Below, one piece after another: positions 8,513-63,180 of a stretch of DNA of 64,000 nt (position 1 is the stretch's first letter; each line of letters starts with the position of its first letter). Below the pieces are notes generated by a model. The model was not told the DNA's origin. It did not search any database and was given only the letters and a program-made list of their open reading frames with translations. This DNA is from an uncultured bacterium (GTDB lineage: Bacteria; Zhuqueibacterota; QNDG01; DSAB01), in the NCBI GenBank assembly GCA_964537715.1, contig CAZIAH010000005.1, forward strand, positions 4,465-68,464. The letters run 5' to 3'. Made by a program: the position numbers and the translations under genes.

Positions 8513-8570
8513 ATTTTTATCCATTTTATTTGAGACTACGTATGAGTGCAATTTCAAAGTATACTTATAT

Positions 8571-8640: not shown

Positions 8641-11361
8641 TTATTTATTTTTTAGTATGTGTTCACCGGAACCAATATTATCAAGATAAATGTAATCTCC
8701 CTCATGGATGCCTTTGATTTCTTTTTGATCAAAAATTATTGTAGAAGTACTATTATTGCATTTTGGGACATAAACTTTAGCTGTAACATTATCCGGTATT
8801 TTCACGCTTAATCTGTAATTGTTGTTTTCTTTTTTCCAGTCAACAAAAATATCACCCATATCTGTTTTGTAACTTCCCTGGGCATAAGAAAGTTTATCTC
8901 CAAAATCCAATGGTTTAATTTGTACTTTGTCATTCTGTGGAGACAGAGATTTGACACCTAATATATAGTTTTGGATTGCCAATAAACCTACAGCGCCCCA
9001 TGGATGTGATGTACTTTCGTTTTTCTCAATGGCATTCCACGATTCCCAGGTAACCGTCGCTCCCTGTGTTAAATTTTTGGCCCAGCCATCCCATTGGGTA
9101 TTGGTATACAAATCGATTAAGTGTTCTCCTTCACCTGCTTTGCCAAGAGCTTCTGGTAGCCACCGCAAACAAATCATTCCTACATTCATTTTACGGTTTT
9201 TTATCTCTTCAACTATCTTATCCTGGCTTTCCTTTGGAGCTATATCCAGTGCATAAGGAAGAATATTTGCATGCTGGGAAACATGCTTACTTTGTGATTT
9301 ATCGCTATAAATACCATCTATATAAACTCCATCTTCATTTAGCAGAAGCGCATTCATGGCTTCTTTTATCTGGTTTGCTTTTGTCTTATAAATATCACTA
9401 TCAGAAGTATTTCCTAAAGCGCTGGCAATCTTTGCCATAATTGCAAAATCAGCAGAGGCATAGGCATCAATAACCGTTCTTGATTCAACACTCATGTCAT
9501 ACCCATATCTCATATCCTTAGGCCAATCAATAATACCATACTCATAGGGACCTTTACCACCTTTTAAATCGCGGATTAATCCTGTATCGTCATTTCTATA
9601 AGTATCAACATAATCTGCAATCTTTTTTAATTGATGATAATGCATTTTCAGGAATGTTTTGTTACCTGTTTGCATGTAGTAATCCCAAACCCAAAAAAGG
9701 TATTGCTGTGTATAATCAGGAATGTCTCTCGCGCCATCACCGTTTGGGTAAACTGCATTTAAACGCCCATCCGGCCAATACTGATCCTGAGAATCAAGAA
9801 ATTCATTTAAGGATCGCATGTTCATTGTCCGATCATACATTACACTCAAACAAGGCACCGCCTGAGACCAGCTATCTCCCAAAAAGGGACCTTTTTCTCT
9901 TGTTGGCGTATCTAAAAAGCCTTCCTGCGCGCCAGCCATCAATGAATGAACCATTAAATTCCAAACATTGTTAAGAGTGGTATCAGAAGATTCAAGCTTG
10001 GCACAATTTGGCGCCAGCTCATAATGTCTTGTAATAAAGCTAACATTATCAAAGGTTAACACATTGGGAGAATTCTCGACCTGAAGATACTGCAAACCAA
10101 GATAAATATAGGGATTGAATACGGCTGTCTTTCCATTGAGAATAAAATAAAAGTGTAAATTGGTTTGTTGATTGATTTCTTCTGATACAGTTCCATCATT
10201 ATTTAAAACAAAACCGCCTAACATTTTTACCGTATCCCCTGAAGCGCCGCCTTCAAAATTGATTTTAAAACTTCCCGGATAAATTTTCCCCAAATCTATG
10301 ACATATTTTGAAGGTTCTATACGCGTCACTGAGACCGGTTTGATCTCTTTTTCAATGATCCGGACGAGGTCCGACCTTAAAATCCCGGTCCAAGGCTGAG
10401 TTGGCTGAGATCCGATCTCGGTTGCAAACTCCCAACCTGAATCATCAAGCTCCTGTGTATTCCAGTTCTCAATTGTTTTACGGCTGTCAATTTTTTCTAC
10501 CCTGCCGACACCTTCACCATTACGCTGAGGCTGACCCGTAATCCACTGAGTAACCTGTGTCTGCTTCCATGTTTTATCGGTACCCAAAATAGTGGATGTT
10601 GAATCTGTATATTCAATGATGGCTTTCATCAGAAATCCGCGCGTGCCTTTTGCCCGCCCTTGCCCAGCGCCATACCAATGCGTTAAACATGCAAACAGAT
10701 TCTCATCATTGCCGAATAGATAGGATGTGACATCCCAGGCATGATAATAACTGTATTGCGGATAATGATGATTGAAACCCTTGCCGACAAACTTTCCATT
10801 TATATAAAGTTCATAACTATGACATGCGGTTATATAAACAACGGCCCGTTTTATCTCTTTGGCGGGCAGCGTGACACGCTTCCGATAATAGGTATAATCA
10901 TCCTCTCCTTCAGTATCACGTTTTATCCATTCAGCGCCAGACCAATCGCTGTTTGAGAAGAGTCCGGTTGCAAAGGTGGCAGGATCAGAGAAAGGACTGA
11001 CATTTCCATCTTTATCCCAGATTCTGACTTTCCAGAGATATTGTGCGGCTGGTTTAAGCTTTTTTCCTTGATAGTAAACATAGTTTTGCAGCCTGGATTC
11101 GGTCTTTCCACTATCCCAGATATCACCAAGTCCTGAATCGAGTTTTGACTTGCATGAAGATACGATAACCTGGTAGGCAGTTTGAATCTCATTATTATCA
11201 GGATCACTGTTAAACCATGCAAAATAGGGCGTTTCAGAAACACCTGCCGGGTCAACTTTGTCATCACATCTTAAATTAAATGGAGCATCGGGTTCGGAAG
11301 CGCTTAGTTGAAAAGATACGCCTAATAGCAGCAGAATGAATACAATTTTATGTTTAATCAT
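8641..11361 (-). CDS. GH78 alpha-L-rhamnosidase, secreted
   Basis: ORF 8641..11379. ATG at 11361 is preceded by AAAGAGGAAACA. Signal peptide MIKHKIVFILLLLGVSFQLSA. Bacterial rhamnosidase N-terminal signature PYFAWFNSDPDNNEIQTAYQVIVSS. Six-hairpin region (WDYYMQTGN, HPWGAVGL). Confidence 0.8.
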   Translation of the reverse strand: MIKHKIVFILLLLGVSFQLSASEPDAPFNLRCDDKVDPAGVSETPYFAWFNSDPDNNEIQTAYQVIVSSCKSKLDSGLGDIWDSGKTESRLQNYVYYQGKKLKPAAQYLWKVRIWDKDGNVSPFSDPATFATGLFSNSDWSGAEWIKRDTEGEDDYTYYRKRVTLPAKEIKRAVVYITACHSYELYINGKFVGKGFNHHYPQYSYYHAWDVTSYLFGNDENLFACLTHWYGAGQGRAKGTRGFLMKAIIEYTDSTSTILGTDKTWKQTQVTQWITGQPQRNGEGVGRVEKIDSRKTIENWNTQELDDSGWEFATEIGSQPTQPWTGILRSDLVRIIEKEIKPVSVTRIEPSKYVIDLGKIYPGSFKINFEGGASGDTVKMLGGFVLNNDGTVSEEINQQTNLHFYFILNGKTAVFNPYIYLGLQYLQVENSPNVLTFDNVSFITRHYELAPNCAKLESSDTTLNNVWNLMVHSLMAGAQEGFLDTPTREKGPFLGDSWSQAVPCLSVMYDRTMNMRSLNEFLDSQDQYWPDGRLNAVYPNGDGARDIPDYTQQYLFWVWDYYMQTGNKTFLKMHYHQLKKIADYVDTYRNDDTGLIRDLKGGKGPYEYGIIDWPKDMRYGYDMSVESRTVIDAYASADFAIMAKIASALGNTSDSDIYKTKANQIKEAMNALLLNEDGVYIDGIYSDKSQSKHVSQHANILPYALDIAPKESQDKIVEEIKNRKMNVGMICLRWLPEALGKAGEGEHLIDLYTNTQWDGWAKNLTQGATVTWESWNAIEKNESTSHPWGAVGLLAIQNYILGVKSLSPQNDKVQIKPLDFGDKLSYAQGSYKTDMGDIFVDWKKENNNYRLSVKIPDNVTAKVYVPKCNNSTSTIIFDQKEIKGIHEGDYIYLDNIGSGEHILKNK

Positions 11362-11453
11362 TGTTTCCTCTTTTATCATTTTTTCTGCAATATTTTACTC
11401 ATTGTGTAAATTTAAATGCTGAACCCGGTATTTTGGGCCGGAGAATATTTGTA

Positions 11454-12992
11454 TTAAAATGCTTTATCCTTCACTTCTTCCAATTTTGTATTCTCAACCG
11501 ATTCACACTGGTTCGTCTCAAAATTTTTCACATTCTTCAACGTAAACATGGGCACATCTTTCATCTTCTGTATATCCACATTATTGAATTCTGCATTTTT
11601 TACATCTTCCAAAACAAAAGCCGGACGTGCATCATCATTCACATAATGAATTTCGACGTTGTTAAATTCAATACCATCTACGTGGCGAACGAAAAAACCA
11701 TAAGCCGGTATTTTACCAAAGAAACGGGGATCCGGGTAATGGTCTTCCAGTTCCGGGACCTCTATCGTGGTATATTCTTCAGGTGCGCCGCCTGTGACCA
11801 GAAACTGGATATTGTTGAGTTTAACATCCTCGATATTATGACCGGGAATGCCCAGAATCAGCGATGCAGACTCGGGATTGGCGTTATTCACGATGACATC
11901 GCTAATGTTGATATGGCGCATCGCTCCAATTTTCATATCCTTTGGTCCGCGCATCCGACGGCCGATCCTTAGGAAAAGTGGCGAATTGGTAATATCCCGC
12001 ATGGTGATATTGGAAATAGTAACATCTTCGAGAATACCGCCGTCTACTGTTTCCAGAGCCAATCCACGGCAATGATCGAACGTGCAATTGGTAATTGTGA
12101 TATTCTTGAAACCGCCATTGGATTCCGTACCGAATTTTATGCGTCCCGTTACACCTCCATGATCCGGCGCCTCCTTTTGTGTTTTTTGAAAAGTACCGTC
12201 AAGTAACGTGTGCAAATCATAACCGCTAACCTGACAGTTGCTAATCATCACATTTTCTGTTGCCCGGGCATAACCCAGCGCGTATGAACTTTTCAACACA
12301 ATCGCATCGTCATTCGGGGTATTGATAAGACAGTTCGATATACGCACATTTAAACAGCAGTCAATATTAATTGCATCACGATTGGTATCGATCATTAGAT
12401 TATCAATCGTGAAATTATCCACCCCGGTAGGCAAAATGGCGAAGTGCCCGCATTTCTCCATAGTAATATCACGAATAGTCACATTCCGGCAATTTTTAAG
12501 TGCAATCGCTTTGTTTCCGGCGCCCACTTCCTCGGGGTGATCCCATTTCTGCAAGCCATCTCCCTGAATTTTACCCGGACCACTTATCGAGATATTATTT
12601 AAGCACTCGCCCCAAATCAGGCTGTTTTGCCAATGGCTGTGCCCAAAATCCTGGTACATATCCCATTCGTTTGGTTCCGCCGGATCATACCCGCCATCAT
12701 AATCCATATGGCTTGCCGCCAGGATGACCGCGCCATGATCGAGATACAGACCAATATTGCTTTTTAGGCGAATAGTAAAACATAAATAGGTTCCGGCCGG
12801 GAAGTAAACAGTACCGCCGCCTGCTTCTTCGGCTGCATCGATGGCTTTATTAATTGCCGGAGAATCAATCACTTTACCGTTGCCGGTTGCGCCATAGTCT
12901 TTTACATTATACTGACTAGCGAATAAGGGCAAGGCCGTTATTGCAATTAATAACAATAAAACGGTTCGAATTTTATTTCGCTGGATAAACAT
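11454..12992 (-). CDS. GH28-family pectin-type hydrolase (rhamnogalacturonase/exo-polygalacturonase-like), secreted
   Basis: 512 aa. Signal peptide. N-terminal YNVKDYGATGNGKVIDSPAINKAIDAA..GGGTVYFPAGTYL motif of pectate-lyase-fold glycosidases. Repeated beta-helix coils (NRDAINID, NDDAIVLKS, DHGGVTGRIKFGTE). SD AAGGAAAGGAA before the ATG. Confidence 0.7.
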   Translation of the reverse strand: MFIQRNKIRTVLLLLIAITALPLFASQYNVKDYGATGNGKVIDSPAINKAIDAAEEAGGGTVYFPAGTYLCFTIRLKSNIGLYLDHGAVILAASHMDYDGGYDPAEPNEWDMYQDFGHSHWQNSLIWGECLNNISISGPGKIQGDGLQKWDHPEEVGAGNKAIALKNCRNVTIRDITMEKCGHFAILPTGVDNFTIDNLMIDTNRDAINIDCCLNVRISNCLINTPNDDAIVLKSSYALGYARATENVMISNCQVSGYDLHTLLDGTFQKTQKEAPDHGGVTGRIKFGTESNGGFKNITITNCTFDHCRGLALETVDGGILEDVTISNITMRDITNSPLFLRIGRRMRGPKDMKIGAMRHINISDVIVNNANPESASLILGIPGHNIEDVKLNNIQFLVTGGAPEEYTTIEVPELEDHYPDPRFFGKIPAYGFFVRHVDGIEFNNVEIHYVNDDARPAFVLEDVKNAEFNNVDIQKMKDVPMFTLKNVKNFETNQCESVENTKLEEVKDKAF

Positions 12993-14225: not shown

Positions 14226-15482
14226 TTATTTAGCATTCTTCAGAATAATGGCATCACCTTCTTCAACGTTGATTGTCAGACCGGAAAGATCCAGACCTTT
14301 GACATTTTCTACGATAAAACCCGTTTTCGCATTGATTTTACAATTCTCAAAGACAACATTCTCAATAGGACTTTCATCGAGTCCGTACATATCGCCTACC
14401 TTATCAACAGTACCGGAAACATTGATAATCTTTACATTGCGAACAACTGGCAATGGATCAGAGGGTGGTTTGATTGGCGGCACCATACGCCAGGCCATAT
14501 TGAATTCAAAAGCTTTACGGGTTTTTTTAAGCGTGATATCACGATAAGTGATATTTTCCACCACACCGCCGCGGCTTGGTTGCGATTTAAAGCGAATAGG
14601 CGCCCAATTATCAGCTTCAACCACGCAATTGCGAATCTCAACTTTACGGATACCACCGGACATTTCACTACCCATTGAAACGCCACCGTGACCATAACGT
14701 AAATTGCACTTTTCAACAAGAATATCCTCAGCGGATCGATTGACGCGCCTCCCATCTTCATCTTTACCGGATTTAATGGCGATGCAATCATCATTTACAT
14801 CAATATCGCAATTGGTGATGCGGACGCGGGTGCTGGAATCGACATCGATACCATCGGAACTGATGATGTTGTGTTCAGCACGGATGGTCAGGTTTTCAGC
14901 AACGACGTCTTCGGAATAGAGAATGAACAAACACCAGCATGCTTGGTTTTTTAAATTCAAGTCGGACACCAGCACATTTTTGCAGTTCTGAATGGCGATC
15001 AGGCGCGGCCGTCCAACCTTCAATTTTTCACTTCCGCGCGGATAGCGTTCCATCCACTGATCACCCGATCCATCAATAGTTCCCTCGCCTGTAAATTTGA
15101 AGTCGGTCATTTGAAATGCATTGATTAAAGCAGACGTCCATTTCTTTTCCTCACCTTCCCAACGCGTGAACACCTGGGGATAATCATCGGGATTATCTGT
15201 GCCTTTTAACACACCGTCTTTTTCAATATGGAGATTAACGCCCTGCTTAAGAAAAATGGCTCCGGTGAGAAAAACACCTTTAGGAATGACCAGCGTACCG
15301 CCGCCTTCTTCGGCGCATTTGTCAATCGCTGCCTGGATGGCTTTGGTATTTAACGTTTGACCGTCATCGACAGCGCCGTGATCTGTAATAATAGTGCGCT
15401 TGGTCGGTTTTACAGATGAGCAATTAAGAAAGGTTAGAGAAAAAATGATTAAAATGATAACTGTGATGGATTTTCGAAACAT
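14226..15482 (-). CDS. GH28 glycoside hydrolase (polygalacturonase/rhamnogalacturonan hydrolase family), lipoprotein
   Basis: 418 aa. Lipobox LTFLNCSS. Canonical GH28 motifs SDGIDVDSS, NDDCIAIKSG, GHGGVSMGSE and RFK. SD GAAGGAG before the ATG. Confidence 0.85.
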   Translation of the reverse strand: MFRKSITVIILIIFSLTFLNCSSVKPTKRTIITDHGAVDDGQTLNTKAIQAAIDKCAEEGGGTLVIPKGVFLTGAIFLKQGVNLHIEKDGVLKGTDNPDDYPQVFTRWEGEEKKWTSALINAFQMTDFKFTGEGTIDGSGDQWMERYPRGSEKLKVGRPRLIAIQNCKNVLVSDLNLKNQACWCLFILYSEDVVAENLTIRAEHNIISSDGIDVDSSTRVRITNCDIDVNDDCIAIKSGKDEDGRRVNRSAEDILVEKCNLRYGHGGVSMGSEMSGGIRKVEIRNCVVEADNWAPIRFKSQPSRGGVVENITYRDITLKKTRKAFEFNMAWRMVPPIKPPSDPLPVVRNVKIINVSGTVDKVGDMYGLDESPIENVVFENCKINAKTGFIVENVKGLDLSGLTINVEEGDAIILKNAK

Positions 15483-15552: not shown

Positions 15553-17580
15553 TCACTTAAGCAGTACCATTTGACGGGATTGACTGACTGTTTCTCCACC
15601 TGTATTTATTTCCATTCTGTAGATATAAACACCGGAAGCCGCAAAATCGTTGTAATCATTGCGCCCATTCCAGCTTATTTCAAAGGTGCCTGCAGATTGA
15701 TGCTGATTGATAAGCGTTCGCACCTTTTCTCCCTTCAGATTGTAGATGTTCAACCGGATATCGGCCGAAGTCGGTAATGAGTAACAAATGGTGGTTGACG
15801 GATTAAAGGGATTGGGATAATTCTCTAAAAGTGTGAAAGTGTCCGGGAAATCATTGTTGATGTGTTTAACAATAGTCGGGGTATTATTTATTTTCTGAAT
15901 GAGTTCAATACCTTCACCTGTACCCAGATTGCGGCTGTACTGTTTGTCTGTAGAATTATTCCAATGTTCGTGTACTCCCAGGCTTTCTAAGCGTGTGCCA
16001 TCGCCTTCCGGATCATAGAACGTTTCTGATGGTGGATTATCAGCCTGGGCCGCTTCATGAAGATAATTATCCGCAGTACCATCCGGTACGCCCCAGTCTG
16101 AGCACCTTAAAAAATCCAGCAGCACGGACTCCATAGCGACAAAATCCTGGCTCATGAACAGACTTGATGCCGGGCCGCCATTGAAGGGTTCTATCGACCA
16201 TGGTACTTTACGAAGACGTTCGGCTAACAACAGAAAGGTTTTCCCTCCCAGCTCTTTATGCCCCATAAGATCAACCAGTACATTGTAGGAACCCATTGGA
16301 AGCTCATGCCAGTTACCAAGGGTAAGGGCGGCAACCCCATAGTGCATAAAGTACGGACACCAGCCATGGTAATAATAAGAATTCGTTCCAGGAGGGTTGG
16401 GATGGTAGACCGAGCCGAAGAAGTTCTTGGCACAGCAGGTAACACCTGCTAGTTCATGAGCGCGCGGCAGACAAAAACTGATAAGATACTTTGCCTCTGA
16501 AGCTACTGTGGGCAGACATACCTTGCCGCTGCTACCCGGTACCAGAGTTGTATCGCTATAATATATCACACAGTTAGTATCGGGTACTACCTTTTCGCGG
16601 GTACCGGGATTATCGCCAGGGCCGTTTTCATAACCATGTCCATCAACACGGTCAGTGCAATCGCCTTCGGCCCAGCGCACACCCGGAAAGTCTGTATGAC
16701 AGTAGTTATATATGGGATCGCCATGATAGAAAACGCAATCATAGAAGGTAATATCCTCATCCGGCACGCCTGCTTTACTTACAAGATGCCAGATCAGAGC
16801 ATAAATCATTTGCGGACTATGCCGGTTTTCCTGATTGTCAGTCCATTCGTAAAAACGGGACTCAATATTATTGATTTTTATGGCAATTTTATCACCAGCC
16901 TGATAGCCTGTATTATCCTGGTTGTAACGCTCTTTATTGAAGTATTTGAAAAGGGAATCCCAAGCTTCGGTTGGATCGCTAATCCCTGTCATGTTGGTTA
17001 GCGCCAGGGTCATCATGTTCCGGGCGACTTCAGGATCGGTGCGCTCATCATCCCACCAATCCCCATCCTGCCTGCCTTGATCACAGAGTAGGCTGTCATA
17101 AACCCACACAACGCGTCCGGGATGAATCCCTTTGGCCGTACCTATCGGAGTATTGGGCGAATCAGTGGGGGTAAAATTTGTTGTACCGAAAATGTTTGCA
17201 GCTGATGCAGAAACATCGCGTATATCATTCATAGTGAAAAAACAAACCAGTACAGCCGTTACAAATGAGATTGCCCCAACGATATACTGCCGTTTTTGGA
17301 AGAGGTGACGGGCCTTACACACTATAAAAGTGGACCCCAACAATCCTAACAACCAGGTGATAAAACCCGCTGCTATTGGTTGTGCTACCCGTTGGCAGGG
17401 ATAGGCCGCGCGGCTGGGCTTGGGTACTACCCGGATAAGAACCCAGACAACAGAGGCCAGACCAATCACAATCCACAACCATGGCGTCTTTCCTTCTACT
17501 TTTTTAAGTCCGGTTATTTTACCGGTTCTGGAGCACACTGTGAACCGTTTCATGATCAGTCGTCTGATATTTGAAAACAT
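15553..17580 (-). CDS. Membrane-anchored protein with DUF362-like central domain and T9SS C-terminal sorting domain, function unknown
   Basis: 675 aa. ATG 17580 is preceded by the SD CAGGAGTAA. Three hydrophobic N-terminal segments (WLWIVIGLASVVWVLIRVV, IAAGFITWLLGLLGSTF, IVGAISFVTAVLVCFF). Central region with GDKIAIKINNIE and Cys/His-rich stretch. C-terminal LLENYPNPFNPSTTICYSL...LLK matches the T9SS CTD. Confidence 0.4.
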   Translation of the reverse strand: MFSNIRRLIMKRFTVCSRTGKITGLKKVEGKTPWLWIVIGLASVVWVLIRVVPKPSRAAYPCQRVAQPIAAGFITWLLGLLGSTFIVCKARHLFQKRQYIVGAISFVTAVLVCFFTMNDIRDVSASAANIFGTTNFTPTDSPNTPIGTAKGIHPGRVVWVYDSLLCDQGRQDGDWWDDERTDPEVARNMMTLALTNMTGISDPTEAWDSLFKYFNKERYNQDNTGYQAGDKIAIKINNIESRFYEWTDNQENRHSPQMIYALIWHLVSKAGVPDEDITFYDCVFYHGDPIYNYCHTDFPGVRWAEGDCTDRVDGHGYENGPGDNPGTREKVVPDTNCVIYYSDTTLVPGSSGKVCLPTVASEAKYLISFCLPRAHELAGVTCCAKNFFGSVYHPNPPGTNSYYYHGWCPYFMHYGVAALTLGNWHELPMGSYNVLVDLMGHKELGGKTFLLLAERLRKVPWSIEPFNGGPASSLFMSQDFVAMESVLLDFLRCSDWGVPDGTADNYLHEAAQADNPPSETFYDPEGDGTRLESLGVHEHWNNSTDKQYSRNLGTGEGIELIQKINNTPTIVKHINNDFPDTFTLLENYPNPFNPSTTICYSLPTSADIRLNIYNLKGEKVRTLINQHQSAGTFEISWNGRNDYNDFAASGVYIYRMEINTGGETVSQSRQMVLLK

Positions 17581-17615: not shown

Positions 17616-19088
17616 TTATGAAGATTTTTTCCGTTTCTGCAAATCTTTTTCAATTGTTATCAACAAGTTATCATTGACCGGATAAAAGAACAGCAATAGA
17701 CCACAAACTGCTAAAAAACCAGCAGGAATAAGACTAAACAACCATTTAATACCATTTAGCGTATGGGGCATGATCGTTTCACCTTTGATGTAGCCGAATT
17801 GGCCCAACATATAAAGCGCCAGAAATCCACCAACAGCCACACCCGCCTTGATTGCAAACATGATCCCGGCAGTGACCAGTCCTGTTGCGCGTTGTTTAAA
17901 TTTCCATTCGTGAAAATCGGCCACATCGGCGAACATGGCAAACAGAAACACCGGCATAGCGCCGGCCAATATCGCCCAGATAAAATTCATAACACAGAGC
18001 AGTATAAAATTAGACTCCGGCAACCAGTAGAAAATCGCACCGAAAAAAGCACCCGCCAATGTGACCACAATGATAGTCAATTTTTTATCAAAATATTTTT
18101 TAAGCGGTGTGCTCAAGAAAACACCGACCATCATACCCACCGTACCAACAGTAAGAAATGTCGTGGTTTGGTCGAAATCGAGTTTGAGCGTACCAATAGT
18201 AAATGACCACAACACCTTGCTGCCCTCGCCGTTCACATAATCAAAATAATAAGCAACCATACCGTTGCGAATCATGTTATGGATGAGCCAGAATATGGAG
18301 GCAACAAATATCACGATCCAGGGGATGTTTTTTGATACATTTTTCAGATCACCAATAAAGGAACTTTTCTGCTCTTTGGGTGGTGCTACACGTTCACGTG
18401 TGGTGAGAAATGTAATGAGCAGCAGAATAATGGCAATAGTTCCGAATACGCCCATCGTTACCTGGAAACCCAATGCCTGGCTGTAACCCAGATCAGGATT
18501 GTAGCCCGGATGTGACGGATTATTTCCAAAGAACCGAGCCAAAGGCAGAGTGAACGTCGTAATCAGCATCGCACCAACAAAGGCGAAAAAGAAGCGGTAC
18601 TGTGCCAGCGTCGTCCGCTCTTTGGGATTTGGCGTCATCACTGCCATCATCGAGGAGTAGGGAATGTTGATAGCCGTGTACGCCATGGTGGCTAAAATAT
18701 AGGTGACATAGGCATAAACCACTTTCATACTTTGGCTGAGGTCCGGCGTGATGAACATAGCGAAGGCCAGAATACCGTAGGGAACAGCCATCCACAATAA
18801 ATAGGGGCGAAATTTACCCCAGCGGGTATTGGTTCTGTCCGCAATCATCCCCATGATAGGATCGTTAATCATATCCCAAACACGAGTGATGAGGAACATG
18901 AAACTGGCCACTTTTGCGTCGATACCAAACACATCCGTGTAAAAAATCATCAGAAAGAAGCTCCAGGCCTGGTACAGAATATTGGACGCCGTATCCCCAA
19001 GTCCGTAGCCGATCTTTTCGACAACGGATAAGTGATTGCCTAAGCCACTAAAGTTTACTTCCGAAGCCGAATTTTTGTGTTCGTTCAC
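17616..19088 (-). CDS. GPH-family glycoside-pentoside-hexuronide:cation symporter (MFS superfamily)
   Basis: 490 aa. 12 predicted TM segments. GPH signature region GYGLGD..NILYQ..FFLMIFYTDVFGI...DRTNTRWGKFRPYLL. Confidence 0.85.
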   Translation of the reverse strand: MNEHKNSASEVNFSGLGNHLSVVEKIGYGLGDTASNILYQAWSFFLMIFYTDVFGIDAKVASFMFLITRVWDMINDPIMGMIADRTNTRWGKFRPYLLWMAVPYGILAFAMFITPDLSQSMKVVYAYVTYILATMAYTAINIPYSSMMAVMTPNPKERTTLAQYRFFFAFVGAMLITTFTLPLARFFGNNPSHPGYNPDLGYSQALGFQVTMGVFGTIAIILLLITFLTTRERVAPPKEQKSSFIGDLKNVSKNIPWIVIFVASIFWLIHNMIRNGMVAYYFDYVNGEGSKVLWSFTIGTLKLDFDQTTTFLTVGTVGMMVGVFLSTPLKKYFDKKLTIIVVTLAGAFFGAIFYWLPESNFILLCVMNFIWAILAGAMPVFLFAMFADVADFHEWKFKQRATGLVTAGIMFAIKAGVAVGGFLALYMLGQFGYIKGETIMPHTLNGIKWLFSLIPAGFLAVCGLLLFFYPVNDNLLITIEKDLQKRKKSS

Positions 19089-19108
19089 TCTTAATTTTTC
19101 CTTCCGCC

Positions 19109-21292
19109 TTACAAATCAACAATTTGAATACCATGGGGTTCAAGGCTTACTTCAACCGTATTCCCTTTATCATCAAATACCTTTGTTGTTTCCACATAGT
19201 CACTGCTGCTTATGACAACAAGTTTTTTATTTTTGGGATACCAGGCACAGTCGGTTTGAACATTACTGCATGTCCATGCTTTATATTCCGGTTCCATCCC
19301 GGCGCTGGTAAAAAGTGATCGATGCAGTAGGCGTGAGTTTTCTGGTGAAAATTTAAATCCGGACAGGTAGATTGCTTTTCCTTTGCCGAATGAATGCAGG
19401 GTAATTTGTGGGGAACCATCTTTCTCTGCCAATACAGTTGTCTCTTTGCTAAGCACAAAAATGTTATCAATATCTTTACCAAAATCGATGTCGCCACTTA
19501 TATCTTCCAGAATAAAATGCTTTGATGAAGCCGTGACCGGCAATTTAACATTACACATCGTCAACCCAATTTCGCGGTCAACACCAAGCAGATGCGCCAA
19601 CTGGAAATATTGACTCGAACATTTTACCGCTGAGGGTTCACCGATTCCTATAAATCCGCCGCCATTCGCAACCCATTTGGTGATCGCTTCAATCACTTTC
19701 GCGTCTTTCCAGTAATCACCGCCGCTCCATGCGGTTCCACCCTTTCCGGCATTGATGATAACATCTGTACCTTCGGGAATGCCATTTTCCAGAATATCCC
19801 TGAAACCTGTAAACGAAACATCCACTGGTAATCCGGCAAGGGATTCCGTAACCTCATAAATTTCAACGCCGGGTATAAAGTGACCGACGTAATCCCATGA
19901 ACGCCATTTACCCCACGCAGTAAGAACAACAACTTTCAGCGGTGCAACATATGGCCCTCCATCTGCGTGAAATTGTTGAAACGTGCGGAACTCATTGGCA
20001 ATATGATCAATCGCTTCAACAAACTCAGGAAAGTCCTGCACAAGATGCAGGTAGCCACCCAAACCGATACGGTCAATGGGTATGCGAAGCAGACCGCGGC
20101 GTATGTTGGCCCAGAAATGCTTGGCATCCAGCGCCGGATCGCCTCCTTCCATAAAAGTTGGTTCGCCTTTTAAACCAGTTGGGAACAGGTAAGGATGCAA
20201 ACGCAGCTCTTTGGTTTTTACACCTTTCACACCTGCGCAAAGTCTGGCTTCAAACGCATTGAATACACACTTGATTAAACCATCAAATCCAAACTCTTTA
20301 TACCGATCGCCCCAGGGCTCGGTGCCAACCCAATGATCATCGTAAAACATATAAGCCACTTTACCGGATTCGTGGACTAAGTCAATACACTTGCGACCAA
20401 AACTGACGACAAACTCATTCATAAAATCCATCCAGTCCCACAAGCGGTCGGAAGGTACATTATGGCTGGAGCAGTAAGCACCGTTGCTGACAAAATCTTC
20501 ACTGGTCATCTGGTAGCCTTTGGTTTCGGCAAACAAACGCATGGCACGCGGGCTTACAGTCATCTCGTATGATCCCCAGTCGGCATAACGGAATTTCTGG
20601 ATTGAAGGATCGCCCCAGAACCAGGCAAAATTATAAAACAGGGATGTGAAGCGTACGATTTTTGTTTTGGGACGTTCATCAAGCCACTTTTTCAGTGTGC
20701 TGAGAATGGCTTCTTGCGCTTCCGGATAAATGGGATCGACGGGCATTTGGTGTTCGCGGTCACCCCAGTCATTGGTAATATGGTTGTACATGGAAATACC
20801 TTCCCATATACGGTAGGCTAAAAAGTTAATCGTGTATTTGTGCCACCTTTGGACATTTTTAATAGTCACACTACCATTCGTTGTATCAAATACCCATAAC
20901 TCTTTCGGTACTTCTTCGCCGGTCGTACGGTCAAACACCTGCCACCATGCTTTGGGATCATCATTGGCATTCACTTCAAATTGTTCACGGAAGAAACCTT
21001 TCAGCAAATCGATTGTAATCGTTTTACTTTCTGCCACTACCGGATCGCTCATCAGATAGTTCTGTTGAAGTTTATCACGATTTGCTTTGGCCCACTCGTT
21101 ATCTGAACGGATCAGGCATATTGTAGAATAGATGGGATAATCCGCCTGAATAATTTTTTCAGATAATTGTATGCCGTCACTATCGCGAATAGCATCTGCA
21201 CCCCAACGTTCCGCAAGTTCCAGGGTTAAATTTTCATATCCTGCCTCACCAGGCAAGGTAAAATTTCCTTTTAAATTCTGTTTATCAGTCAT
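19109..21292 (-). CDS. GH112 phosphorylase (lacto-N-biose / D-galactosyl-beta-1,4-L-rhamnose phosphorylase family), cytoplasmic
   Basis: 727 aa, no signal peptide. Many blocks recalled from Bifidobacterium LnpA are conserved: LELAERWGADAIRDSDG, VFDRTTGEEV, INFLAYRIWEGISMYNHITNDWGDREH, IVRFTSLFYNF, MTVSPRAM, HWVGTEPWGD, IDRIGLGGYLHLVQDFPEFVEAIDHIANEFR. Confidence 0.8.
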   Translation of the reverse strand: MTDKQNLKGNFTLPGEAGYENLTLELAERWGADAIRDSDGIQLSEKIIQADYPIYSTICLIRSDNEWAKANRDKLQQNYLMSDPVVAESKTITIDLLKGFFREQFEVNANDDPKAWWQVFDRTTGEEVPKELWVFDTTNGSVTIKNVQRWHKYTINFLAYRIWEGISMYNHITNDWGDREHQMPVDPIYPEAQEAILSTLKKWLDERPKTKIVRFTSLFYNFAWFWGDPSIQKFRYADWGSYEMTVSPRAMRLFAETKGYQMTSEDFVSNGAYCSSHNVPSDRLWDWMDFMNEFVVSFGRKCIDLVHESGKVAYMFYDDHWVGTEPWGDRYKEFGFDGLIKCVFNAFEARLCAGVKGVKTKELRLHPYLFPTGLKGEPTFMEGGDPALDAKHFWANIRRGLLRIPIDRIGLGGYLHLVQDFPEFVEAIDHIANEFRTFQQFHADGGPYVAPLKVVVLTAWGKWRSWDYVGHFIPGVEIYEVTESLAGLPVDVSFTGFRDILENGIPEGTDVIINAGKGGTAWSGGDYWKDAKVIEAITKWVANGGGFIGIGEPSAVKCSSQYFQLAHLLGVDREIGLTMCNVKLPVTASSKHFILEDISGDIDFGKDIDNIFVLSKETTVLAEKDGSPQITLHSFGKGKAIYLSGFKFSPENSRLLHRSLFTSAGMEPEYKAWTCSNVQTDCAWYPKNKKLVVISSSDYVETTKVFDDKGNTVEVSLEPHGIQIVDL

Positions 21293-21310: not shown

Positions 21311-24214
21311 TTAATTCAATTCTCCAAAATAAAAATACAATGTCCGTTCATAAGTACTGTCAATCGTATTCTTTTTACTTGTTGGCCCCATCTGTTCGGG
21401 ATGCATATTGATACGTGTTGCCATCTGTGTACAGGTTGGCGGAATAAAATCGAGAAACGAAATATCGCCTGGTGGCAAAGATGGATAAGATTCTTTCCCA
21501 CGTAGTGAATAAAATTCAAATAATCGAACGAATAAATCATCCTGTTTGCTGGCAATATAGATTCTACCTTCAACTGTGTTCAACTCCATCCAGGCAACAT
21601 CTGAAAAGTAACCCTTAAATTCCGGGTACTTCCACGGCGATGTGCCGGTGAAGGTATTATTGTATGCGTCCTCCCACACATTAAGAGTCACACCTTGCAT
21701 CCTGTTTTTCCAGACACGGTATGGACCATTACCGAGCCATTTGGCGCTCAACACAAACTCCTCAGGATAATTAAAGCTGACACCGCTAAAATTGTATTGC
21801 CCATGCAATTCATACGAATAGGTCATTTCCAGCCAGCCGCTTGGGAACAGCTCCCAGCGCACCGTTTTCATACCACCTTCATACGCCGTTTCAACCACAT
21901 AGCCACCTTTTTCCCGGTGATGTTTCAATCCTGTAAAAGTTGAATTTCCTGTGCAAAAAACCGGACCGTTATTGAAATGAATTTCACGGTCTTTTTCACT
22001 AATATTAATTTTAATGTGCGTTAATAAGCCGTTTAGTTTACTTAAAGTAAGAAACTTACTACCTACGGTTAACACAAGCGATGTATCGTTCTCATCGATG
22101 TCGATTGAATTTTCATCTTCTCTTTTCACAATGGATTTTATTAACGATTCGTTGTTTTGAATCTTCCAGGACCATGTGTAAATATCCTGTCCGGTTGGAT
22201 CGACAGCCTTCAATAGCAAAGCTTCTGCATTTTGCCAGTCATCCGGTAAGGAAAAATTTAAATGACCACTGGTGTGCGGTTTTATATCTACTCCATTAAC
22301 CGATCCTTCGTTGATCAGGTTATAGCCCTTCCGCGTCTCTTCCGGTTTGGGGAACTCTACTAATTTCCAGTTAAACGAGCACTGGTTGAGATTGATAAAA
22401 TCGAACCGGTTTTCCACAGGAATATTTCCGTCAAATGAATCCGGCAATTCATTCATTTCGATGTGAACAGGAGAAAAAATCTGCTTTATCGCATTGAAGC
22501 TGCCTTCCTTTTCACGATGTGGACCCAAAATGCCATCCGGGGCATTGACACCATTCACATCGATGATGCCGCCAAGATCGGTTCGGACAACGCCTTCATC
22601 TAATAACGCCCAAATAAATCCACCACCTGATTTCGCCGCTTTCCACATCAGTTCCCAGTAATCATACAACCCTGCGCCGCCACCCCCATCAAACTGGCTG
22701 TGCTGGAATTCCGTTGGCATATAAATATTCTCTTGCTTAAAAAGCCATTGCATGCCGCTGTACTTTTCATAATGATTGGTGTCAATATGATTAAAAGCAT
22801 ATCCCGGTTTAAAATGCGGATGAATCACTGTTCTGTTTGAAGGATCATATCTTAAGAAATCGTCATCCAACTCTTTATTGGTTCCCCCTTCATTGCCATT
22901 GCTCCAGAAAATCACCGAAGGATGATTCACATCGCGGATAACCATTTCACGAACCAATATTTCTCCAATCGCTGTATCATAAGCATTGTGCCAGCCAGCT
23001 AATTCATCAATTACATACAATCCAAGCGAATCGCAATAATCTAGAAAACTCTGATCCGGTGGATAATGTGAGCAACGCACGGCATTCATATTCATTTCTT
23101 TGATAAGCTTTACATCCATCAAATCGATGCCTTTGTTGAGACAACGTCCTGTTTCCGGCCAAAAGGCATGACGGTTGATGCCTTTCATTTTGACTTTAAC
23201 CCCATTAATATAGATACCATCTTCCGGCCGGACCTCTATCATCCGAAAACCAAATTTTTCCTTTGTTTGATAAAGAATATGTTCACTGTCTTTTAAATAA
23301 ATATCAGCCTTATATAAAGTTGGTGATTCACTACTCCACAGATATGGATCATTTAATTTTGTTCTTAGGGTTACTTTAGAATTGCCTTTGCCTGTCTTTA
23401 CAGAAATGGATTTTACAATCTTGTTCTCAGGCTCAATAATTTCTGCAATGATCTCTCTTTCATCCTGCACGTTTTGGGGAAAAACATCTATACTAAACGA
23501 ACCATCTGCTTTGGCCACGATAGCCGTTCGCTCAATGTGTTCCCTGGGATAGGCTTCTAAGTACACCGGACGAAAAATCCCACCGAAAATCCAATAATCT
23601 GCATAGCGTTCAGAGCGGTTCACGGATTCGTTGGATGACATCTTACTCACCATAACTTCAAGCTGATTGGACTTATCAAAATAAAGCGCATCGGTTATGT
23701 TATAAGTGAACCTGTAAAAAGCGCCCTGGTGCACATCGCCCGCAGATTGGCCATTAATTTTAACTTCCGTATCCGTCATAGAGCCTTCAAATACAATAAA
23801 TATCTCTTTGCCGCGCCATGATTCAGGAACGGAAAATGTGTGTTTATAAAGTCCTTCTTCATTCGCATATTTGAATTGCGGGCCATACGTATAATAATCT
23901 CGACCATAATTGTAACTGCCAAAACCCTGTTGTTCCCAATGAGACGGAACTTCAATTTTTGTCCAGTAACCGCTCTTGCGCCCGCCGGTACAGAAAAAAT
24001 CCCAGGTAACAGTTCTCTCATTATCGATTCCTGAAAGGTATTGAATCTGCTTTTCAGACGATGGTTTTGAAAAGATACTGACAGGGTATAAAGCGCAAGT
24101 AAGAATCAGAGTGAAAAAATAATTGATTAAAACCTTAATATTGTATTTACCTTTCTTGAAATCATTTCCAACCAAATCAAAAGCTCTAAGTAAAATAAAC
24201 TCTGACAAGGGCAT
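21311..24214 (-). CDS. GH2 beta-galactosidase-type glycoside hydrolase, secreted; start codon uncertain
   Basis: 967 aa. GH2 motifs GINRHAFWPETGRCL, VIFWSNGNEG and ELAGWH. Hydrophobic signal-like segment only after residue ~25 (NIKVLINYFFTLILTCALYPVSIFS). The annotated ATG (24212-24214) lies inside the loop of an upstream terminator hairpin. A TTG at about 24175 is an alternative start. Confidence 0.8.
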   Translation of the reverse strand: MPLSEFILLRAFDLVGNDFKKGKYNIKVLINYFFTLILTCALYPVSIFSKPSSEKQIQYLSGIDNERTVTWDFFCTGGRKSGYWTKIEVPSHWEQQGFGSYNYGRDYYTYGPQFKYANEEGLYKHTFSVPESWRGKEIFIVFEGSMTDTEVKINGQSAGDVHQGAFYRFTYNITDALYFDKSNQLEVMVSKMSSNESVNRSERYADYWIFGGIFRPVYLEAYPREHIERTAIVAKADGSFSIDVFPQNVQDEREIIAEIIEPENKIVKSISVKTGKGNSKVTLRTKLNDPYLWSSESPTLYKADIYLKDSEHILYQTKEKFGFRMIEVRPEDGIYINGVKVKMKGINRHAFWPETGRCLNKGIDLMDVKLIKEMNMNAVRCSHYPPDQSFLDYCDSLGLYVIDELAGWHNAYDTAIGEILVREMVIRDVNHPSVIFWSNGNEGGTNKELDDDFLRYDPSNRTVIHPHFKPGYAFNHIDTNHYEKYSGMQWLFKQENIYMPTEFQHSQFDGGGGAGLYDYWELMWKAAKSGGGFIWALLDEGVVRTDLGGIIDVNGVNAPDGILGPHREKEGSFNAIKQIFSPVHIEMNELPDSFDGNIPVENRFDFINLNQCSFNWKLVEFPKPEETRKGYNLINEGSVNGVDIKPHTSGHLNFSLPDDWQNAEALLLKAVDPTGQDIYTWSWKIQNNESLIKSIVKREDENSIDIDENDTSLVLTVGSKFLTLSKLNGLLTHIKINISEKDREIHFNNGPVFCTGNSTFTGLKHHREKGGYVVETAYEGGMKTVRWELFPSGWLEMTYSYELHGQYNFSGVSFNYPEEFVLSAKWLGNGPYRVWKNRMQGVTLNVWEDAYNNTFTGTSPWKYPEFKGYFSDVAWMELNTVEGRIYIASKQDDLFVRLFEFYSLRGKESYPSLPPGDISFLDFIPPTCTQMATRINMHPEQMGPTSKKNTIDSTYERTLYFYFGELN

Positions 24215-24230
24215 GAAACCCTTGTCAGAG
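24186..24230 (-). terminator. Rho-independent terminator downstream of the duplicated-domain T9SS protein gene
   Basis: Perfect 12-bp stem CTCTGACAAGGG / CCCTTGTCAGAG (24200-24211 and 24219-24230) with 7-nt loop. On the minus strand it is followed by UUUAUUUUACUU. 13 nt after the stop at 24243. Confidence 0.7.
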
Positions 24231-24242
24231 TTGTTGTCTTCC

Positions 24243-26558
24243 TTATTTCAGCAACATCATCTTCTTAACTTTAACGAAGTCACCAGATTCAATGCGGTAA
24301 AAATAGATACCAGATGAAAATGATGCAGCTTTGAATGAAACAGTGTAGACACCGGCAGCCTTTTCCTGATCTACTAATGTAGTAACAACTTGACCTAACG
24401 CATTATAGATCTTTAATGTTGTCTTGCCTGCTTTCGGTAAGCTATACTTAATAATGGTCTCCGGGTTAAACGGATTTGGATAGTTTTGCTCAAGAGCATA
24501 AACTGTCGGGATTGTACTGTTAGCTTCAGCAACCGAAGTCGGTTCTTCAACTTTCCCAAGCTCAGCCATACGGGCAACTTCATTGAAGAAGACTTGCTGG
24601 GCATCATCAGAGAAGTTATCGTAATTGAATGGGCCTGCTGCCGTTTCATAAAAATGGTCATTACCGTTTCCAATTAAAGTACGGTAGCCAGCAGCATAGT
24701 CACCCGCGCCATCGTAAAACTCTGTCCACGGATCCCAACGTACAAAGAACACATTGGAGTTGCTGGCAGAGCGCGCTAATACTGTGCCGTTACCGCCATC
24801 TGTGGTCACAATATAATCGTATGGAGTAGAACACCAATCCATCGTACTATCCGCTGCAAGAGTGGCACCGGCGAATACAGCATCATCCGGGGTTTCTATT
24901 TTGGCGCTAACGGTTTCACCAGCAACATCGTACGTAGTGATCGAGGTTGATTGTAGCCAGTTTAATCTGTTGCTGCGAGCAGCCCATGGCGTCATCAGCA
25001 CTAAAGGAGAAGTGATGGCGTTCCATGTCGGTTTTTTTGATGCATCAAAGTTTCCGCTAAGAGGTGAACGTGCGACGATAACCAAATCAGCAGCATTCAA
25101 AGTATCAATCAGGCCCTGGGAAGCTTGGCTAAGATCTGCGCTGAATACTGTGCTAACAGCATATCCCTGTGCTTCTAATCCATCAATTAAATATTGGTCA
25201 GCGTGTTCTTGTATATCAGGATTCATCTTGGCGGGATCGCTGAAAAGAACAATTTCTTTGTCCAAACCTACCGGTTTTTCAACTTTTCCAAGCTCAGCCA
25301 TACGGGCAACTTCATTGAAGAAGACTTGCTGGGCATCATCAGAGAAGTTATCGTAATTGAATGGGCCTGCTGCCGTTTCATAAAAATGGTCATTACCGTT
25401 TCCAATTAAAGTACGGTAGCCAGCAGCATAGTCACCCGCGCCATCGTAAAACTCTGTCCACGGATCCCAACGTACAAAGAACACATTGGAGTTGCTGGCA
25501 GAGCGCGCTAATACTGTGCCGTTACCGCCATCTGTGGTCACAATATAATCGTATGGAGTAGAACACCAATCCATCGTACTATCCGCTGCAAGAGTGGCAC
25601 CGGCGAATACAGCATCATCCGGGGTTTCTATTTTGGCGCTAACGGTTTCACCAGCAACATCGTACGTAGTGATCGAGGTTGATTGTAGCCAGTTTAATCT
25701 GTTGCTGCGAGCAGCCCATGGCGTCATCAGCACTAAAGGAGAAGTGATGGCGTTCCATGTCGGTTTTTTTGATGCATCAAAGTTTCCGCTAAGAGGTGAA
25801 CGTGCGACGATAACCAAATCAGCAGCATTCAAAGTATCAATCAGGCCCTGGGAAGCTTGGCTAAGATCTGCGCTGAATACTGTGCTAACAGCATATCCCT
25901 GTGCTTCTAATCCATCAATTAAATATTGGTCAGCGTGTTCTTGTATATCAGGATTCATCTTGGCGGGATCGCTGACAAGAACGATTTCTTTAGGATTCCA
26001 ATCAGTACTAGGATTAAAAGTATCGCTGGTTGTTACAATGATATGATCTATGGCAGCCCCTCTTTCTCTGAGATAAATTGTCAATGTATGAGCTCCTGCA
26101 GTAGGAATATTAAAGGAAGTAGGTCCCTTTACCCATTCCCATACTCCGTAACTTCCATGTGGAATCATATCGTTTTGACTAGCAATACTATCACCTAGGC
26201 CATAGTAGAATGAGTCATTCTGTCCATCAATAAAATACTTGCGGACCCAGATGTAGTGTGCGCCGGTTTTCGTGAAGTTTATATTATAAGATAAAGCAGG
26301 CGCATCAGTCTCAGCCGTTGTATTTGGATTATAAACTCCAGCATCCGTACCTTGCATATAGCTTGAACCTAAAAATCCTGCAAAAGTGGTTGAATCAGCA
26401 AAAGTATCACCCTTGGATCCATCGCGCAGCGAATCATAGTCTTCAGCCGGCATTGTGACTAAACCAAGAAAATCAGATTTCTGGGTGAAGTCGGCGTATG
26501 CGCTGCTAAAACAAAGCAGCACTAATGATAACAGAATGAAAGATAACTTATCTCGCAT
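24243..26558 (-). CDS. T9SS-secreted protein: N-terminal beta-sandwich (CBM-like) domain, two near-identical 244-aa alpha/beta repeat domains, T9SS CTD; no recognisable catalytic domain
   Basis: ORF track start is GTG 26636. Preferred ATG at 26558 is preceded by AAGGAGGAGGAA and gives signal peptide MRDKLSFILLSLVLLCFSSAYA. Internal 732-bp tandem duplication (see the repeat feature). C-terminal LEQNYPNPFNPETIIKYSL...LLK. Confidence 0.6.
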   Translation of the reverse strand: MRDKLSFILLSLVLLCFSSAYADFTQKSDFLGLVTMPAEDYDSLRDGSKGDTFADSTTFAGFLGSSYMQGTDAGVYNPNTTAETDAPALSYNINFTKTGAHYIWVRKYFIDGQNDSFYYGLGDSIASQNDMIPHGSYGVWEWVKGPTSFNIPTAGAHTLTIYLRERGAAIDHIIVTTSDTFNPSTDWNPKEIVLVSDPAKMNPDIQEHADQYLIDGLEAQGYAVSTVFSADLSQASQGLIDTLNAADLVIVARSPLSGNFDASKKPTWNAITSPLVLMTPWAARSNRLNWLQSTSITTYDVAGETVSAKIETPDDAVFAGATLAADSTMDWCSTPYDYIVTTDGGNGTVLARSASNSNVFFVRWDPWTEFYDGAGDYAAGYRTLIGNGNDHFYETAAGPFNYDNFSDDAQQVFFNEVARMAELGKVEKPVGLDKEIVLFSDPAKMNPDIQEHADQYLIDGLEAQGYAVSTVFSADLSQASQGLIDTLNAADLVIVARSPLSGNFDASKKPTWNAITSPLVLMTPWAARSNRLNWLQSTSITTYDVAGETVSAKIETPDDAVFAGATLAADSTMDWCSTPYDYIVTTDGGNGTVLARSASNSNVFFVRWDPWTEFYDGAGDYAAGYRTLIGNGNDHFYETAAGPFNYDNFSDDAQQVFFNEVARMAELGKVEEPTSVAEANSTIPTVYALEQNYPNPFNPETIIKYSLPKAGKTTLKIYNALGQVVTTLVDQEKAAGVYTVSFKAASFSSGIYFYRIESGDFVKVKKMMLLK
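24538..26001 (-). repeat. In-frame tandem duplication, two copies of 732 bp (244 aa), inside CDS 24243..26558
   Basis: Copy A about 24538-25269, copy B about 25270-26001. The copies are identical except about 5 substitutions clustered at the copy boundaries. Plus-strand antisense ORFs are duplicated with an offset of exactly 732 (24629/25361 and 24862/25594). Confidence 0.9.
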
Positions 26559-26758
26559 TTCCTCCTCCTTCATTTTGTTGTACGAGTTAATGTGATTCAT
26601 GACCTTTACTTCCTGAATTGTTATAAGAAATCTCACCTCCTTTCTTCAATAAATTTTTGATGAAAATATTAAAGCAAATGATAGATTTAAAAATAAATAT
26701 ATATTTGCCTTCACCGATAATCATACACCTGGCATATATTAATTATGGATGTACGAAC

Positions 26759-34704: not shown

Positions 34705-34774
34705 CTTCTTCTCCAATTTGTTGGGTAATGAAACAATCTTCATATTGTAAGAAATAACGTATTTCAATAGTGCT

Positions 34775-44601: not shown

Positions 44602-44649
44602 AACTCTCTGCATTCTCAAATTTTCAAGCTACTGTTGCTTTTGTATCTG

Positions 44650-63100: not shown

Positions 63101-63180
63101 GCCTTACAATTATTAGACTAATCTTATGTACATATACTTATCTCACAATTTACCGTTAACAAAAACTGAGGAGTGAACAA

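Follow-up and report, generated by a model that had tools for sequence, protein, structure and literature searches.

We have analysed two adjacent genes in a 64,000-nucleotide stretch of DNA from an uncultured bacterium (contig CAZIAH010000005.1, hereafter termed the window), which encode a phosphorylase of glycoside hydrolase family 112 (GH112) together with a sugar:cation symporter of the GPH family. A first-pass annotation had placed these genes on the minus strand at positions 19109-21292 (727 aa) and 17616-19088 (490 aa) and had proposed that the phosphorylase degrades D-galactosyl-β1,4-L-rhamnose (Gal-β1,4-Rha) imported by the symporter, within a locus devoted to the breakdown of the pectic polysaccharide rhamnogalacturonan-I (RG-I). 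Both open reading frames are found at these positions, as part of a tight same-strand run in which a GH2 gene is separated from GH112 by 18 bp and GH112 from GPH by 20 bp, with the gene of a DUF362 protein following after another 35 bp (Table 1).

The surroundings of this run agree with what had been proposed for the locus. All 33 large open reading frames between positions 2 and 62815 are located on the minus strand. Besides the GH28 (two), GH105 (two), PL11 and GH78 enzymes that had been listed before, the window encodes GH35, GH2 (three), GH106 and GH115 proteins, two further lyases (PL9 and a PcRGLX-like exo-rhamnogalacturonan lyase), an esterase of the GDSL type, a LacI regulator and two TonB-dependent receptors. 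The rhaA/B/D-like genes are represented by a RhaI-type isomerase, a rhamnulokinase and a class II aldolase, with LutABC and an FAD oxidase alongside. Sorting domains of the type IX secretion system (T9SS) are present in many of the enzymes, and every carbohydrate-active enzyme (CAZyme) of the window except GH112 contains a signal peptide or a lipoprotein-like N-terminus. The closest genomes are metagenome-assembled genomes of Calditrichaceae and KSB1, at 83% identity.

Table 1. Features of the window, with positions counted from its first nucleotide.
Feature	Position	Strand	Remarks
Second GH105, T9SS-secreted	4793..6262	-	
GH106 α-L-rhamnosidase, exported, lipoprotein-like	6362..8557	-	PF17132; co-travelling module
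GH78 α-L-rhamnosidase	8641..11379	-	
GH28/rhamnogalacturonase-A-like β-helix protein, exported	11454..12992	-	Co-travelling module
GH28, exported, lipoprotein-like	14226..15482	-	Pfam GH28; co-travels with GH112-GPH
DUF362 protein with T9SS C-terminal sorting domain	15553..17580	-	35 bp downstream of GPH
GPH-family (MFS_2) sugar:cation symporter, 490 aa	17616..19088	-	GTG start; predicted Gal-β1,4-Rha importer
GH112 β-galactoside phosphorylase, 727 aa, predicted cytoplasmic	19109..21292	-	ATG start; predicted Gal-β1,4-Rha phosphorylase
GH2 β-galactosidase, exported, BT4156-like	21311..24214	-	GH2 Pfam domains; BT4156 is an RG-I exo-β-1,4-galactosidase of B. thetaiotaomicron
Hairpin, perfect 15-bp stem, T-rich tail	24198..24232	-	3' of upstream gene
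T9SS-sorted 797-aa protein	24243..26636	-	Two essentially identical ~245-aa modules
PcRGLX-like exo-rhamnogalacturonan lyase	30530..33292	-	PF21346, PF21345, PF19501
GH105 unsaturated rhamnogalacturonyl hydrolase	33472..34767	-	PF07470; signal peptide
466-aa membrane protein	34959..36359	-	~12 hydrophobic segments
LutC/LutB/LutA	36402..39209	-	
Class II aldolase, presumed rhamnulose-1-phosphate aldolase	39243..39977	-	PF00596; overlaps rhaB stop
Rhamnulokinase (RhaB)	39974..41404	-	TIGR02627 523.1 bits, narrowly missing the cut-off of 527.95
PL11 rhamnogalacturonan lyase, T9SS sorting domain	41539..44619	-	PF21348 669 bits
GH115, full length	44650..47565	-	
TonB-dependent receptor	54343..57339	-	CarboxypepD_reg domain
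L-rhamnose isomerase, RhaI type	58607..59821	-	TIGR02635 320 bits (below cut-off), PF06134
FAD-linked oxidase	60349..61779	-	
TonB-dependent receptor	63173..64000	+	CarboxypepD_reg domain

The 727-residue product of the phosphorylase gene displays the three-domain architecture of GH112, consisting of an N-terminal TIM barrel (PF09508, residues 9-449, 646 bits), a central domain (PF17385, residues 453-667, 261 bits) and a C-terminal domain (PF17386, residues 673-724, 55 bits), which all exceed their gathering scores and jointly span residues 9-724. In a sequence search of the PDB, the protein matches structures of the phosphorylase for galacto-N-biose and lacto-N-biose (GLNBP) from Bifidobacterium longum (2ZUS, 3WFZ) with an E-value of about 1e-175. 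The earlier family assignment is confirmed by these results, and the same applies to the assigned cytoplasmic location, as inspection of the N-terminus revealed neither a signal peptide nor a hydrophobic segment and as the alignment already begins at residue 4 of GLNBP. In an alignment of 46 GH112 sequences, all 37 family-invariant residues are preserved in the window protein, including R32, N166, R210, D313, R358, Y362 and F364 (B. longum numbering). Its D319 corresponds to the catalytic general acid Asp313 of GLNBP, and its R36, R214 and R364 to Arg32, Arg210 and Arg358, which we take to be constituents of the galactose/phosphate site; all four are found in 46/46 sequences. Because the full set of invariant residues is present, the protein is, judged from its sequence, almost certainly an active β-galactoside phosphorylase.

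Within the family, the window protein is part of a well-separated group. An exhaustive search of 1.84 billion representatives of clusters defined at 50% identity returned one close representative (52% identity, 876 bits), while all other full-length GH112 representatives show at most 43% identity and 649 bits, which marks a clear discontinuity. For the phylogenetic characterization, a neighbour-joining tree with bootstrap values out of 100 was calculated. Besides the window protein, it comprises 26 relatives taken from named genomes or metagenomes, 18 cluster representatives and B. longum GLNBP, whose sequence was rebuilt from the PDB alignment. In this tree, the window protein, its relatives and the representative P0285 form a clade of 28 sequences with a bootstrap value of 99/100. 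The clade encompasses proteins from Calditrichota, KSB1, Bacteroidales/Draconibacterium, several orders of Planctomycetota, Sumerlaeota, Anaerolineae, Treponema and Actinotalea, and it also contains members from Opitutaceae/Opitutales (58-62% identical to the window protein) and from Lachnospiraceae, such as MDF2589517.1 of Anaerocolumna (53%). B. longum GLNBP, with 40% identity, is located on a distant and separate branch, together with a cluster that owes its UniRef name to the characterized GLNBP Cphy3030. The two latter groups of clade members serve as proxies for the characterized galactosyl-rhamnose phosphorylases (GalRhaPs) Cphy_1920 and Oter_1377, in whose place they stand in the tree. 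Of the placement that the first-pass annotation had suggested as a check, the separation from GLNBP and from lacto-N-biose-type enzymes is thus evident, and a grouping with characterized GalRhaPs is indicated only indirectly, by the Anaerocolumna and Opitutaceae/Opitutales proxies. A matching search of a plasmid collection was uninformative, with two distant GLNBP-type matches at 38-39% identity.

The distinction between the clades is also manifested in the sequences. Seven positions are fixed within the clade and have the same residue in 0/18 of the other GH112 proteins, namely R161, W224, W226, G240, D318, K341 and L411 of the window protein, which are equivalent to I157, L220, F222, F234, G312, G335 and Y399 in B. 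longum. D318 immediately precedes the catalytic aspartate, and substitutions peculiar to the clade are also found in the segments 157-163 and 220-222. Stretches typical of the clade are WE[GAE]ISMYNH, FYNFAWFWG and FYDDHW. These residues and segments are candidates for lining the +1 subsite. Pro161 and Val162 of GLNBP, which we assume to contact the N-acetyl group, were not used as evidence. A similar boundary emerges from database names. JGI assigns the KO-based name β-D-galactosyl-(1->4)-L-rhamnose phosphorylase to the window clade and calls the adjacent clusters P0286, P0289 and P0290, which served as control for this kind of evidence, GLNBP, so that the name flips exactly at the border of the clade. 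At NCBI, MDF2589517.1 and MBA7531972.1 are named galactosyl-rhamnose phosphorylase.

Most relatives carry the name GLNBP at NCBI, and an enzyme degrading lacto-N-biose (LNB) or galacto-N-biose (GNB) is what the NCBIfam equivalog model TIGR02336 (EC 2.4.1.211) would assign to the window protein, with 796.6 bits at a cut-off of 560.3. The residues of the galactose/phosphate site, all of which are common to both proteins, likewise speak for this assignment. However, the score does not discriminate, since the model evidently also captures the clade named GalRhaP, and the resulting label is probably an over-call. A function as GLNBP appears highly improbable in light of the low identity and the separate clade, of the substitutions next to the catalytic aspartate and in the two segments, and of a gene context that is related to RG-I and rhamnose in several phyla. 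Moreover, whereas GLNBP loci carry genes of the GNB/LNB pathway (PMC8106489; PMC7335108), no NahK, GalT, GalE, GH136, GH20 or LNB-binding ABC transporter genes are present in the 64-kb window. From this comparison of sequences, we conclude that the protein most likely belongs to the GalRhaP subfamily (EC 2.4.1.247), whose natural substrate, Gal-β1,4-Rha, is part of RG-I (PMC8475593) and whose members probably act in RG-I degradation (PMC8950772).

This assignment is consistent with the neighbourhoods of relatives. Eighty related loci were compared by tblastn with the complete set of proteins from the window. Both GH28 genes, the GH106 gene and a GH105 gene often travel with the GPH-GH112 pair. 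Orthologues of the GH28 next to the DUF362 gene, with 71-86% identity, are found beside GH112/GPH in L002, L003, L005-L008, L018, L031 and L041, and the same loci contain GH106 orthologues with 60-78% identity. A GH2 gene directly precedes GH112 also in Opitutaceae EW11 and is found nearby in L002, L005 and L008, and a DUF362 orthologue with 73% identity occupies the equivalent position in the KSB1 locus L041 (13301-15304). GH105 adjoins GH112 in many relatives, and in Butyrivibrio hungatei a GH112 annotated as GalRhaP is likewise located beside GH105 (PMC5716241). In Anaerocolumna, the GH112 gene is accompanied by GH105, by the gene of an AraC regulator and by those of ABC permeases and of a protein that is probably their binding component. 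In Opitutaceae EW11, its neighbours encode a PcRGLX-like lyase, RhaM (rhamnose mutarotase) and an SSF symporter. Homologues of rhamnulokinase are encoded near GH112 in L071 (5413-6795) and L075 (1471-2841) of Oscillospiraceae/Eubacteriales, whose GH112 proteins, at 50% identity to the window protein, diverge most within the clade and which thus carry the link to rhamnose to its base.

The same neighbourhoods bear on the question of whether the enzyme could act on a different plant β-galactoside, such as Gal-β1,3-Gal/Glc or a longer galactosylated RG-I oligosaccharide, or on a broad range of substrates. A characterized GalRhaP was found to galactosylate, besides L-rhamnose, the 3-OH of D-glucose, 2-deoxyglucose and D-galactose (PMC4336185), the GH35, three GH2 and GH115 enzymes of the window suggest processing of galactan or arabinogalactan side chains, and the GH112 proteins that are linked to GPH form a sub-clade of their own (97/100) within the larger clade. 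Still, the companions that are shared across phyla are GH28, GH106, GH105, RhaM and RhaB and not genes for galactan or arabinogalactan-protein degradation, and all known GH112 enzymes are strictly disaccharide phosphorylases (PMC8950772). We thus regard a preference for another galactoside as unlikely.

The second gene of the pair encodes a protein of 490 residues that was correctly recognized as GPH symporter before. It scores 369.5 bits with TIGR00792, the model of the glycoside-pentoside-hexuronide:cation symporters (GPH, TC 2.A.2; cut-off 231.35, residues 25-486), matches the Pfam family MFS_2 (PF13347) with an E-value of 5e-96 and contains about 12 hydrophobic segments in its hydropathy profile. 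The closest protein of known structure is the melibiose transporter MelB. In an alignment of both proteins, the equivalents of the cation-site residues D55, N58, D59 and T121 are retained, and at the sugar site S, N and N are found in place of K18, D19 and D124. Matches in the plasmid collection are at most 39% identical, mostly annotated as 'MFS transporter', and thus uninformative.

Among the 80 loci, an orthologue of the symporter with 60-88% identity is encoded on the same strand beside GH112 in 30 cases, usually within 200 bp. In 27 of them GPH precedes GH112, and in the remaining three, as in the window, the order is reversed. The pair is distributed over Calditrichota, KSB1, Bacteroidales/Draconibacterium and several orders of Planctomycetota and thus over at least four phyla. 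Because it survives an inversion of the gene order and spans this phylogenetic distance, we favour functional coupling over inherited synteny as explanation for the adjacency. Moreover, GH112, as the sole cytoplasmic CAZyme of the window, has a disaccharide as its substrate, and the simplest reading is that this sugar is imported by the GPH protein. The symporter, presumably coupled to a cation, thus most likely transports Gal-β1,4-Rha, as had been proposed. In six loci from Pirellulales/Sedimentisphaerales (L012, L017, L021, L022, L027 and L079), the GPH match stops about 1.4 kb before GH112 and, out of 490 residues, no more than about 360-390 are aligned. A gene in between, a fusion or a C-terminus that has diverged could be the cause.

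An alternative role of the symporter, which would then merely share an operon with GH112, is that of a monosaccharide or uronide permease or of a transporter of unsaturated rhamnogalacturonides similar to RhiT, which presumably is a GPH protein as well. RhiT imports rhamnogalacturonides in Erwinia/Dickeya (PMC3870299). Such roles would be in line with the best-matching NCBIfam sub-models, the xyloside- and glucuronide-type YagG and UidB, all of which remain below their cut-offs, and with the use of ABC or SSF transporters by GH112 clade members from Firmicutes and Opitutaceae. The parallel to RhiT is weakened by its requirement for a cytoplasmic GH105 (RhiN), as both GH105 proteins of the window are exported by means of a signal peptide or a T9SS domain. 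In addition, the need of the cytoplasmic GH112 for an imported disaccharide and the persistence of the pair in either order across phyla argue for a partnership of both proteins, and a monosaccharide could be taken up by a separate membrane protein in the rhamnose operon (see below). Although supported by these parallels, we find an unrelated transport function quite unlikely.

Taken together, our results point to a GalRhaP-type, cytoplasmic and inverting GH112 phosphorylase whose substrate would be supplied by a GPH cation symporter of the inner membrane, a model to which we assign a rough probability of 0.68. In the proposed pathway, RG-I would be dismantled by secreted (T9SS) or periplasmic PL11, PL9, PcRGLX-like, GDSL esterase, GH105, GH28, GH106/GH78 and GH2 enzymes. 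Rhamnose residues keeping a single β1,4-linked galactose stub would be released as Gal-β1,4-Rha by a presumed periplasmic enzyme, and the disaccharide would be taken into the cytoplasm by the GPH symporter. There, GH112 would convert it with phosphate into α-galactose-1-phosphate and L-rhamnose, saving the ATP of galactokinase, and rhamnose would be processed further by three enzymes of the window, namely the isomerase, the rhamnulokinase and the aldolase.

Several observations weigh against this model, including the mentioned score with TIGR02336. The co-clustering with GalRhaP draws on third-party names and on the Opitutaceae and Lachnospiraceae proxies. Cphy_1920 is absent from the top 120 matches of the Anaerocolumna query, and neither this protein nor Oter_1377 was returned with window, Anaerocolumna or Opitutales queries, in a genome scan or in cluster look-ups. 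On the side of transport, clade members from Firmicutes, Opitutaceae, Sumerlaeota and Anaerolineae are found without GPH, and the pairing is thus restricted to certain lineages. The Leloir genes galT and galE, which would handle galactose-1-phosphate, were not found in the window. The exported BT4156-like GH2 encoded next door, which scores 866 bits over its full length with NF049891 and remains below the cut-off of 1700, could strip galactose stubs hydrolytically and lessen the need for a phosphorylase. Finally, characterized GalRhaP is promiscuous for acceptors, which include L-lyxose, L-mannose, D-glucose and D-galactose (PMC4336185), and another pectic β-galactoside would thus be possible as substrate.

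A more far-reaching proposal, which we consider possible although doubtful, is that the GPH protein defines a not yet characterized subfamily of Gal-β1,4-Rha:cation symporters and that the module GPH-GH112-GH28-GH28-GH106(-GH105), as found in Calditrichota, KSB1, Bacteroidales and Planctomycetota, embodies a distinct strategy of RG-I degradation. Here, an exo-acting enzyme of the periplasm, such as GH106 or a partner from GH28, would tolerate the galactose stub at O4 and release the backbone rhamnose as disaccharide. This would differ from the initial removal of the stubs by GH2 in B. thetaiotaomicron, and it would imply both a new disaccharide-releasing exo-activity on RG-I and a new transporter specificity.

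As GalRhaP has been known since 2009 and JGI already annotates the clade accordingly, the type of enzyme is not new. We consider our findings modestly new with respect to the conserved GPH partner, as member of an uncharacterized transporter subfamily, and to the evidence for an over-call by TIGR02336. If correct, the model would extend an ATP-saving phosphorolytic branch of RG-I degradation beyond Firmicutes and Verrucomicrobia to uncultivated lineages of sediments and anaerobic habitats (Calditrichota/KSB1, Planctomycetota and environmental Bacteroidales), and it would make the GPH protein the first candidate for a secondary transporter of galactosyl-rhamnose. The mislabelling of an entire pectin-associated clade as LNB/GNB phosphorylases by TIGR02336 would likely be systematic, and it could inflate estimates of milk or mucin glycan use in metagenomic surveys based on the number of GH112 genes.

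With respect to transcription, the hairpin that overlaps with the beginning of the GH2 open reading frame is likely the terminator of the upstream gene, and a transcription unit of GH2-GH112-GPH probably begins at this point. As the first ATG of the GH2 reading frame is enclosed by the hairpin, the real start is probably located further downstream, presumably at a TTG that would yield a normal signal peptide. A scan for sigma-70 promoters gave no usable signal, with 52 sites compared to 42.8 +/- 6.5 expected, and the hairpin is the sole conspicuous element.

Other genes of the window deserve mention in their own right. The 466-aa protein encoded between GH105 and the lutCBA-aldolase-rhamnulokinase genes has no match in Pfam, NCBIfam or the PDB and is a candidate for a novel permease of L-rhamnose or of another RG-I monosaccharide. 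For the class II aldolase, the presumed function is taken from its context. The embedding of the Lut genes and of the FAD-linked oxidase among the rhamnose genes suggests that lactaldehyde is oxidized via lactate to pyruvate; a lactaldehyde dehydrogenase was not identified within the window. The TonB-dependent receptors have no SusD-like neighbour, which, together with the many T9SS-tagged CAZymes, looks like a polysaccharide utilization locus (PUL) that is organized differently from those of Bacteroidia. GH115 enzymes are commonly described as xylan α-glucuronidases. The full-length representative in the middle of this RG-I locus, whose family also adjoins GH112 in Draconibacterium L078, may remove glucuronic acid or its 4-O-methyl derivative from RG-I or arabinogalactan. 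In the 797-aa protein, which shows a weak GH115_C-like match at its N-terminus, the repeated modules are reflected in DNA repeats at 24540-24839 and 25272-25571 that are 99-100% identical at a spacing of 732 bp and that originate either from a very recent internal duplication or from an assembly artefact.

The described system shares features with several that are already known. With the GalRhaPs Cphy_1920 from Lachnoclostridium phytofermentans and Oter_1377 from Opitutus terrae, the window GH112 has in common its family, the three domains, the cytoplasmic location and the context of RG-I and rhamnose, and proteins of Lachnospiraceae and Opitutaceae are found in its clade under a single KO-derived JGI name. 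It differs in the limited identity to these proxies, in its host, probably an FCB-group diderm related to Calditrichota/KSB1 with T9SS-secreted enzymes, and in its GPH partner, whose place is taken by an ABC system in the Lachnospiraceae relative. B. longum GLNBP shares the fold, the inverting phosphorolysis yielding α-galactose-1-phosphate and the residues Asp313, Arg32, Arg210 and Arg358, whereas the window protein carries the substitutions I157R, L220W, F222W, F234G, G312D, G335K and Y399L and a six-residue insertion after Pro365, belongs to another clade and has none of the GNB/LNB pathway genes nearby. Compared to MelB (the melibiose:Na+ symporter, PDB 4M64), the GPH protein has the same family membership, about 12 helices and the same cation-site residues (Asp55, Asn58, Asp59, Thr121), but the E-value is only 1e-33 and the sugar-site residues are replaced. 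From RhiT it is distinguished by the lack of a cytoplasmic GH105 partner. Finally, the RG-I PUL of B. thetaiotaomicron (BT4145-BT4183) resembles the window in its GH106, GH28, GH105, PL9/PL11/PL26-like, GH2 exo-β-1,4-galactosidase and esterase genes, its TonB-dependent receptor and the periplasmic location (PMC8002723). Its pathway, as presented in this review, is fully hydrolytic and ends in monosaccharides, with neither GH112 nor GPH listed (PMC8002723), whereas the window, where no SusD accompanies the TonB receptor, would add a cytoplasmic phosphorolytic branch.

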